IMG/VR virus record: IMGVR_UViG_2713896785_000014
Source: a virus
Lineage: Duplodnaviria > Heunggongvirae > Uroviricota > Caudoviricetes
DNA: 6,858 nt
Reading direction: 5' to 3' (one strand)
Shown: positions 5,600 through 5,666 of the stretch, in pieces
Layout of the letters: every line of letters begins with the position of its first letter
Numbering within the stretch: position 1 is the first letter of the stretch
Program-made: the position numbers and the translations under genes
Notes under the pieces: generated by a model
Told to the model about the DNA's origin: nothing
The model's database searches: none
The model's input: the letters and a program-made list of their open reading frames with translations, nothing else

Positions 5600-5666
5600 A
5601 ATCTAAGTATTTTTAGATTACAAGATAATTTTTTTTAGGTCAATGCAATCTAAAATAATTTATATT
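5600..5666. promoter_or_regulatory. divergent immunity control region: operators O1 (5600..5619) and O2 (5647..5666), candidate pR-like and pRM-like promoters
   Basis: O1 = AATCTAA-gtattt-TTAGATT (perfect 7-6-7 inverted repeat); O2 = AATCTAA-aataat-TTATATT (one mismatch). Candidate promoter for the cro-like gene on the minus strand: -35 TTGACC (plus 5638..5643), 17-bp spacer, -10 TAATCT (plus 5615..5620), overlapping O1. Candidate -10 for the repressor gene on the plus strand: TATATT 5661..5666, inside O2. Confidence 0.5.

Follow-up and report, generated by a model that had tools for sequence, protein, structure and literature searches.

Candidate right and left operators of a lambda/P22-like immunity switch flanking the cI-like gene of an Escherichia coli prophage

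In phage lambda, the operator centres lie at about -19, -42 and -66 relative to PRM, OR2 occupying the position that activates PRM, and the OR sites are spaced 24 and 23 bp apart. The middle site is weak and is normally filled by cooperativity. In lambdoid switches generally, CI and Cro share the operators but prefer them in opposite orders, which makes the switch bistable, and three neighbouring sites some two helical turns apart underlie pairwise cooperativity. The distance between OL and OR is about 2.4 kb.

The operators of P22 follow the consensus ATTTAAGATATCTTAAAT, in which 4 bp separate the TTAAG half-sites, as in TTAAG-ATAT-CTTAA (PMC5175364). The switch of CP-933P, the PaaR2/YdaS/YdaT prophage of O157:H7, has been characterised experimentally and consists of a 97-bp intergenic region with overlapping repressor and Cro footprints (PMC8630535). 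It includes a repeat of consensus GTTTAGTAA in four 18-bp palindromes, analogues of PR, PRM and PL, OL sites, and a PRM transcript that is leaderless (PMC8630535). YdaT itself binds a site TTGATT-N6-AATCAA located at the ydaS/ydaT junction (PMC9986795). In the Qin prophage, three sites are present in the gap between dicC and dicA (PMC10448788). In literature searches for the half-site, for the RefSeq proteins and for related phages and mEp460 by name, no work on operators of the kind described here came up, nor any binding, footprint or transcription-start data for the present immunity type.

The stretch of DNA analysed (6858 nt, hereafter the window) corresponds to the early region of an E. 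coli lambdoid prophage, with a lambda-like gene order. Its sequence matches strain 2013C-3264 at 100% identity and, at 99.8%, the prophage adjoining potC in the O26:H11 strain 11368. Of 5426 complete E. coli genomes, 474 (about 9%), including O26:H11 and many O157:H7, carry the 301 nt around the operators. A cro-like gene of 75 aa (5588..5361, minus strand; PF14549 P22_Cro, E 1.2e-9) and a cI-like repressor gene of 214 aa (5686..6330, plus strand; HTH_3 and Peptidase_S24 domains) diverge from a gap of 94-97 nt, as in lambdoid switches. Both are preceded by a Shine-Dalgarno sequence, AGGAGG for cro (5598..5593, minus strand) and AGGAG for cI (5675-5679, plus strand). The RefSeq start of cI was confirmed; a second in-frame ATG is found upstream of it, at 5683. 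On the minus strand, cro is directly followed by ydaT (5364..4939), the CII equivalent, and beyond it by an O-like gene with a DnaT domain and a lambda-P-like gene. On the plus strand, cI is followed by an intrinsic terminator (6350..6377) with a 9-bp stem and a T run, then by DUF1391, dicB, exo, xis and int. No RNA families were detected by Rfam in the whole window.

The encoded YdaT is closely related to CP-933P YdaT (8bt1, E 1e-78), most aligned residues being identical. A half-conserved candidate YdaT operator, TTGATTTTCATGAATCCC, is present at 5354-5371, at the cro/ydaT junction. Since the search for YdaT operators gave 6 matches for 4.3 expected, which is not above chance, it is only the position of this sequence that points to a YdaT site.

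Two strong palindromes occupy the cI/cro gap. The first, O1 (AATCTAA-GTATTT-TTAGATT, 5600..5619), is a perfect 7-6-7 inverted repeat, and the second, which we call O3 (AATCTAA-AATAAT-TTATATT, 5647..5666), is one mismatch away from a palindrome. The initial annotation had reported both, the second as O2, with exact coordinates and sequences. With leave-one-out matrices, O1 scored 17.3 bits and O3 13.5 bits. The half-site can be written A-A-W-C-T-A-A, often with a G next; the matrix built from relatives reads A/T, A, T/A, C, T, A, A, with 0.96 at each of the last three positions.

Such palindromes could have arisen by chance in AT-rich promoter DNA, or could be sites for host nucleoid proteins instead of phage operators. 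The intergenic region has indeed a G+C content of 25-29%, and a perfect 7-6-7 repeat alone was obtained in 608 of 20000 dinucleotide shuffles (3%) of the AT-rich 94-nt intergenic region. However, a perfect repeat accompanied by a second copy in which 13 of the 14 positions agree, as for the O1/O3 pair, was never obtained in these 20000 trials. At the scale of the window, the palindrome pattern with up to 3 mismatches had 3 matches for 0.27 expected, and 3 matches were reached in none of 200 shuffles. Moreover, when 19.5 kb of the O26:H11 prophage (L001) were scanned with the half-site matrix, scores of at least 9 bits were found only for O1, O3 and a third site at 6406-6425. In these 19.5 kb, the 20-bp motif is thus confined to three places, all of them over promoters flanking cI.

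The conservation of the sites argues further against chance or nucleoid-protein sites. We compared 8 close variants (88-100% identity), seven from E. coli genomes and one from phage vB_EcoM-606R7. Within the three proposed sites (O1, O3 and the central site O2 described below), 3 of 60 positions were variable, compared to 14 of the 34 other intergenic positions (Fisher p = 2.4e-5); the intergenic variation is found mostly in the two mRNA leaders. One of 20 columns varied in O1 and none in O3, and the only change in O1, AATCTAA to AAACTAA, gives the half-site used at 6406-6425. The operator columns, far less variable than the adjoining non-coding ones, thus appear to be under purifying selection.

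More distant relatives, with CI 42-69% identical, were collected from Salmonella, Yersinia, Xenorhabdus, Arsenophonus, Phlomobacter, Symbiopectobacterium, Morganella and metagenomes by searching proteins and looking up their contigs, and viral contigs were examined in addition. A scan of genome contigs with a single protein gave 5 loci. In all 13 relatives with a readable neighbourhood, a P22_Cro-family gene diverges from cI across a gap of 94-107 nt. In most readable relatives, 20-bp dyads with a CTAA-N6-TTAG core lie roughly 12, 36 and 61 nt away from the cro ATG, the O1 equivalent being 11-14 nt from this ATG in all of them. Exceptions are L020, where the half-sites have diverged, and L021, where the central site is shifted. 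The layout is the same in the cultured phage mEp460 (CI 41% identical). The recognition-helix region of CI, GV(S/T)GV(T/A)(I/V)GYWEKDLN, is nearly invariant across relatives, which fits a common half-site. With motif, positions and recognition helix conserved jointly across genera, an origin of the palindromes by chance or through nucleoid proteins is hardly credible. The evidence instead supports the view that the two palindromes are operators of a CI/Cro-type immunity switch, placed over divergent promoters.

The third strong site lies on the other side of cI. This strong candidate operator, OL1 (AAACTAA-ATACTT-TTAGATT, 6406..6425), is a one-mismatch match of 19.5 bits situated 76 nt past the cI stop. 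It is associated with a PL-like promoter (6397..6425, plus strand) composed of TTGACT (6397-6402), a 17-nt spacer and TAGATT (6420-6425), with 9/12 matches in the consensus scan; the -10 of this promoter is the outer half of OL1. A weak candidate site, OL2 (TTTTTAA-ATTAAT-CTAGATT, 6373..6392), precedes the PL -35 and lies 33 bp before OL1. It scored 2.7 bits in the window and 7.8 bits in close variants carrying TTAGATT. In most relatives, an OL pair 33-36 bp apart brackets a TTGnnn -35 in the same register. Exceptions are L017, with a spacing of 23 bp, L015, devoid of OL sites, and a few relatives with no recognisable -35. We had also considered a second OL site at 6383-6402 (AATCTAG-N6-CTTGACT); it was rejected, with a score of -0.4 bits and a position out of register with the relatives. 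OL1 and OL2, together with their promoter, would form a second operator set, the putative equivalent of OL/PL, about 0.8 kb from OR.

In the cI/cro gap, the PR candidate for cro (5615..5643, minus strand) is composed of a -35 TTGACC (5643..5638), a 17-nt spacer and a -10 TAATCT (5620..5615). Its start is predicted near 5608, so that O1 covers the last five bases of the -10 together with the predicted cro transcription start. Neither PR nor PRM was picked up when 5300-5900 were scanned for consensus promoters; for PR this is explained by TAATCT, which matches the consensus at only 3 of 6 bases. PR was identified by a weighted scan combined with cross-locus consistency: it is the top-scoring minus-strand promoter and occurs at the equivalent position in 10/10 loci, in fixed register with O1 and O2. 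The overlap of O1 with a cro promoter -10 TAATCT, as proposed initially, is thus well supported.

Between the two strong sites lies a weak central candidate operator with the same 7-6-7 geometry, O2 (AAGATAA-TTTTTT-TTAGGTC, 5622..5641). Its centre is 22 bp from that of O1 and 25 bp from that of O3, and with respect to PR, the centres of O2 and O1 fall at -23.5 and about +1, respectively. O2 is the third-best non-overlapping match in the window, with 10/14 consensus matches. When the inner segment was shuffled 2000 times, its score of 6.5 bits with a leave-one-out matrix was attained in 7 cases (leave-one-out p = 0.0035 for the window and 0.0005 for L014).

One could imagine a switch with only two operators, in which O1 and O3 would be bound, 5622-5641 would be a mere PR spacer and -35, and cooperativity would act over 47 bp or through OL-OR looping. 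In this respect, the 6.5 bits of O2 are far from the 17.3 and 13.5 bits of O1 and O3. The O2 score even falls to 0 bits or below in the most distant relatives (mEp460 group). The outer bases of the left half differ among close variants (AAGATAA, AGGATAA, AGGGTAA), the right half is TTTGGTC in the viral contig L047, and in 4 of 41 distinct upstream sequences the T run is one base longer or shorter, which would break the 6-bp spacer. Two-site operation may also occur elsewhere in the system, since OL comprises only two sites, with 33-36 bp between them in most relatives. Finally, the right half of O2 overlaps the PR -35, and part of its conservation could be explained by promoter constraint.

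Other observations are nevertheless difficult to reconcile with a simple spacer. The O2-equivalent position was third-best or better in 9/10 loci (leave-one-out), and a third match at 22/25 or 24/25 spacing was present in 33 of the 41 distinct upstream regions from viral contigs. The central site, AAGCTAA-N6-TTAGATC, has full strength in L014 (CI 69% identical), where it is the strongest of the three with 14.2 bits, and it is a good one in Xenorhabdus (ATCCTAA-N6-TTAGATC). Among the 8 aligned close variants, both TAA (5626-5628) and TTAG (5635-5638) are invariant; the TAA is part of the PR spacer, which contains no promoter element that would seem to account for its conservation. In addition, the spacings of the family sites (22-24 and 25 bp) agree with those of lambda, in which a weak, cooperatively filled middle site is usual, as O2 would be by likeness to OR2. 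We consider a two-operator switch unlikely, and somewhat favour O2 as a real but weak operator. The initial annotation had counted only two clear sites, leaving out O2 as well as the OL sites, and had deduced from this a cooperativity scheme different from that of lambda. The count is not supported by the present comparison and, with O2 at lambda-like centre spacings, neither is the deduction.

The promoter of cI is less clear. The weighted scan gave no convincing PRM. Two candidate -10 hexamers (5651..5666, plus strand), TAAAAT (5651-5656) and TATATT (5661-5666), are both covered by O3, and a good -35 is absent for every candidate, as is expected for an activator-dependent promoter. TATATT had been proposed initially as the candidate -10 of the repressor promoter. 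The hexamer is indeed present inside the site, but it is poorly kept in relatives, several of which carry TAGTTA, TAGTAA, TAGCTA or TAGTCG at this position, without the final T of a -10. At the other position, aligned relatives have TAAAAT or TAAGAT; TAAAAT is built from the core of the O3 left half and the conserved AAT that starts the spacer. With TATATT as -10, the sites would be located at -16.5, -41.5 (O2) and -63.5, and the arrangement would mirror that of OL1 and PL. With TAAAAT, O2 would be at -31.5 and would repress PRM instead of activating it. Since both hexamers are inside O3, occupancy of O3 should block PRM either way.

Taken together, these results make it likely that the two palindromes are the strong outer sites of the right operator of a lambdoid prophage immunity switch, acting with the OL pair. 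Repeated dyads over promoters, divergent P22_Cro and HTH+S24 genes and a conserved layout all agree with the immunity switch read initially in this region. The switch could operate as follows. Both CI dimers and Cro dimers would recognise the 20-bp dyad A-A-W-C-T-A-A / N6 / T-T-A-G-W-T-T. CI bound to O1 would cooperatively help CI onto O2, 22 bp away, and transcription of cro-ydaT-O-P would be turned off. If PRM uses TATATT, O2 at -41.5 could activate it, as in lambda. Filling of O3 by early Cro or by excess CI would then turn cI off. About 800 bp away, OL1 and OL2 would bracket the PL-like promoter, which would drive the DUF1391-dicB-exo-xis-int operon. We infer the binding assignments, occupancy order, cooperativity, activation and OR-OL looping from the sequence and from the lambda and P22 paradigms.

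The two regulatory proteins were compared with known structures and families. The N-terminal HTH domain of CI (residues 4-68) has P22 c2 as its nearest relative of solved structure (1adr and 2r1j, E 3e-7 to 6e-7), its C-terminal domain resembles lambda CI (E 4e-5), and Cro is nearest to N15 Cro (2hin, E 2.6e-4). The best NCBIfam matches were DicA for the CI HTH and DicC for Cro, both far below the family cut-offs. In the C-terminal domain, the nucleophile motif is DDTM, with Thr in place of Ser, where lambda CI has GNSM and distant relatives have GDSM. The cleavage-site region is GEAIS (Ala-Ile), compared with VQAG (Ala-Gly) in lambda and distant relatives; the Lys of the catalytic dyad is retained. 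Relatives 49-69% identical have a Thr in the nucleophile motif and no Ala-Gly, and the Ser is kept only in the 42-48% group. A CI 96% identical, also with DDTM and Ala-Ile, is encoded in two deposited phage genomes.

RecA-stimulated self-cleavage involves an Ala-Gly site and a Ser-Lys dyad, a combination which, on sequence evidence, CI does not have. CI may not be self-cleaving, in which case induction would not follow the lambda route. With the canonical Ser and Ala-Gly absent, the induction half of the lambda analogy may not hold. One could go further and suppose that this CI clade has lost LexA-type self-cleavage while keeping the C-terminal domain and the operators, that the switch flips by another route, and that its cooperativity is not that of lambda. 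We regard this combination as a tentative reading, possible but against our own leaning. If it were true, a non-cleavable CI would imply a switch flipped, for example, by an antirepressor or by a Cro/YdaT-driven event, and a distinct cooperativity could stem from a PR start within O1, from a two-site OL at 33-36 bp and from an OR-OL distance of 0.8 kb. Among the features described, only this possible loss of cleavage in CI might alter our view of how the switch works.

Otherwise, the design seems to be the ordinary one of lambda and P22, with a new specificity, and nothing indicates an unusual design. Strong outer sites, a weak centre and a PL operator would recur across Escherichia, Salmonella, Yersinia, Xenorhabdus, Arsenophonus and Morganella, which conceptually adds little. 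The operator consensus and the OR and OL positions could serve to predict superinfection-immunity groups among EHEC prophages, to design reporter and induction experiments, and to provide an orthogonal repressor/operator pair.

Compared with Qin, a homologous operon is found downstream of cI (DUF1391/ydfA ... dicB), whereas DicA has 135 aa and is devoid of an S24 domain. An operator of the Qin DicA type was rejected despite the HTH similarity: those sites are TTAG-N6-CTAA (e.g. TTGTTAGTCATAACTAACAA), with the half-sites in the opposite orientation. With CP-933P, the present prophage shares a closely similar ydaT and the half-conserved YdaT operator at the same cro/ydaT junction. In contrast, PaaR2 of CP-933P is followed by the paaA2-parE2 toxin-antitoxin genes, whereas here an HTH+S24 repressor is followed by a terminator. 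The repeats also differ, so that the immunity is not of the PaaR2/YdaS type and only the ydaT module is common to both.

The locus also resembles that of lambda. Divergent cI and cro genes are separated by dyad sites, three if the weakest, central candidate is counted, with about 2.1-2.4 helical turns from one to the next. The outer sites lie over PR and presumably PRM, and a second operator set is present at PL beyond cI. The differences concern the sites, which are 20 bp long and of another sequence, the number of OL sites (two versus three in lambda) and the OL-OR distance, about 0.8 kb here. PR is also about 17 bp closer than in lambda, so that O1 coincides with the transcription start, and O2 with the spacer and -35. 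Furthermore, cI has a Shine-Dalgarno leader, as opposed to the leaderless lambda mRNA, and YdaT replaces CII.

With P22, the locus shares a Cro of the Pfam family P22_Cro, divergent PR and PRM promoters and a separate PL; CI resembles c2 only in its N-terminal HTH domain. Here OL consists of two sites about 33 bp apart, and CI is without the canonical Ser and Ala-Gly, both in contrast to P22. As in the P22 c2 operator, the half-sites are spaced by one helical turn, with an AT-rich stretch of about 4 bp in the centre. The core is nevertheless CTAA(G)-N4-(C)TTAG, with the half-site G present only in the majority of sites, and the base 5' of TAAG is a C instead of the T of P22. O1 shortened by one base at each end, ATCTAAGTATTTTTAGAT, makes this comparison direct: the geometry is the same and the half-site is one base off. 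The operator specificity is presumably distinct from that of P22 c2, related but not identical.

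The spacer of O3, one of the proposed operators in the cro-cI gap, lies at 5654-5659. In all ten aligned loci, the spacer or its equivalent opens with AAT or GAT, in contrast to the O1 spacers, which show no conservation. This opening creates a conserved hexamer, TAAAAT or TAAGAT, a possible -10 element of the cI promoter PRM, distinct from the one proposed in the initial annotation (TATATT, 5661-5666). In Candidatus Phlomobacter fragariae (locus L011, 1455-1484), the O3 equivalent reads AAATTAA AATAAAATAAA TTAGATT and carries a 5-nt duplication of AATAA in its spacer. The dyad would lose its spacing through this duplication, perhaps a sign that the switch is decaying in an endosymbiont.

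A run of eight T (5629-5636) falls inside both the central operator O2 and the spacer of the cro promoter PR. Among viral-contig copies of this region, its equivalent is composed of 7 T in L026 and L030 and 9 T in L035 and L059. Either length would change the spacer of O2 as well as the distance between the -35 and -10 of PR; these copies could be genuine length variants or homopolymer assembly errors. Parts of the window itself are masked by N runs at 452-521 (70 bases) and 1124-1173 (50 bases), and translated ORFs spanning them include X. A cI gene 96% identical to that of the window was found on a 1.8-kb contig (L009, JAIHTM010000357.1) of a metagenome-assembled genome labelled 'Collinsella sp.', most likely an E. 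coli prophage fragment placed in the wrong bin.

The CI protein (cI, 5686-6330) differs at cleavage-site and catalytic positions (about residues 89-94 and 124-127). By sequence comparison, the S24 catalytic Ser is replaced by Thr in a DDTM motif, where lambda has GNSM and both mEp460 and distant relatives have GDSM, and the Ala-Gly cleavage site is replaced by Ala-Ile (WGEAIS compared to VQAG), while the Lys is kept. Relatives of 49-69% identity likewise lack both the Ser and the Ala-Gly. RecA/SOS cleavage of this repressor may therefore be absent.

The site TTGATTTTCATGAATCCC (5354-5371), which covers the stop of cro and the start of ydaT, differs by two mismatches from the YdaT operator TTGATT-N6-AATCAA, footprinted at the equivalent cro/ydaT junction of CP-933P (PMC9986795); the window YdaT is close to PDB 8bt1 from CP-933P (E 1e-78). 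Of the two halves of the site, only the one within ydaT is intact, in keeping with a mosaic junction of immunity and ydaT modules at this boundary.

The leader of roughly 170 nt (6430-6605) from the PL-like promoter to the DUF1391 gene was compared with locus L105 (1640-1708). It is similar to the dicBp-ydfA leader in the Qin prophage of K-12, as exemplified by the shared sequence ...GCGTTAAGGG(T/G)AAATGAGGTCA(A/G)CATGGAT. The immunity module upstream of the leader in Qin is unlike that of the window. It looks as if one PL operon, common to both prophages, is attached to differing repressor/operator sets.
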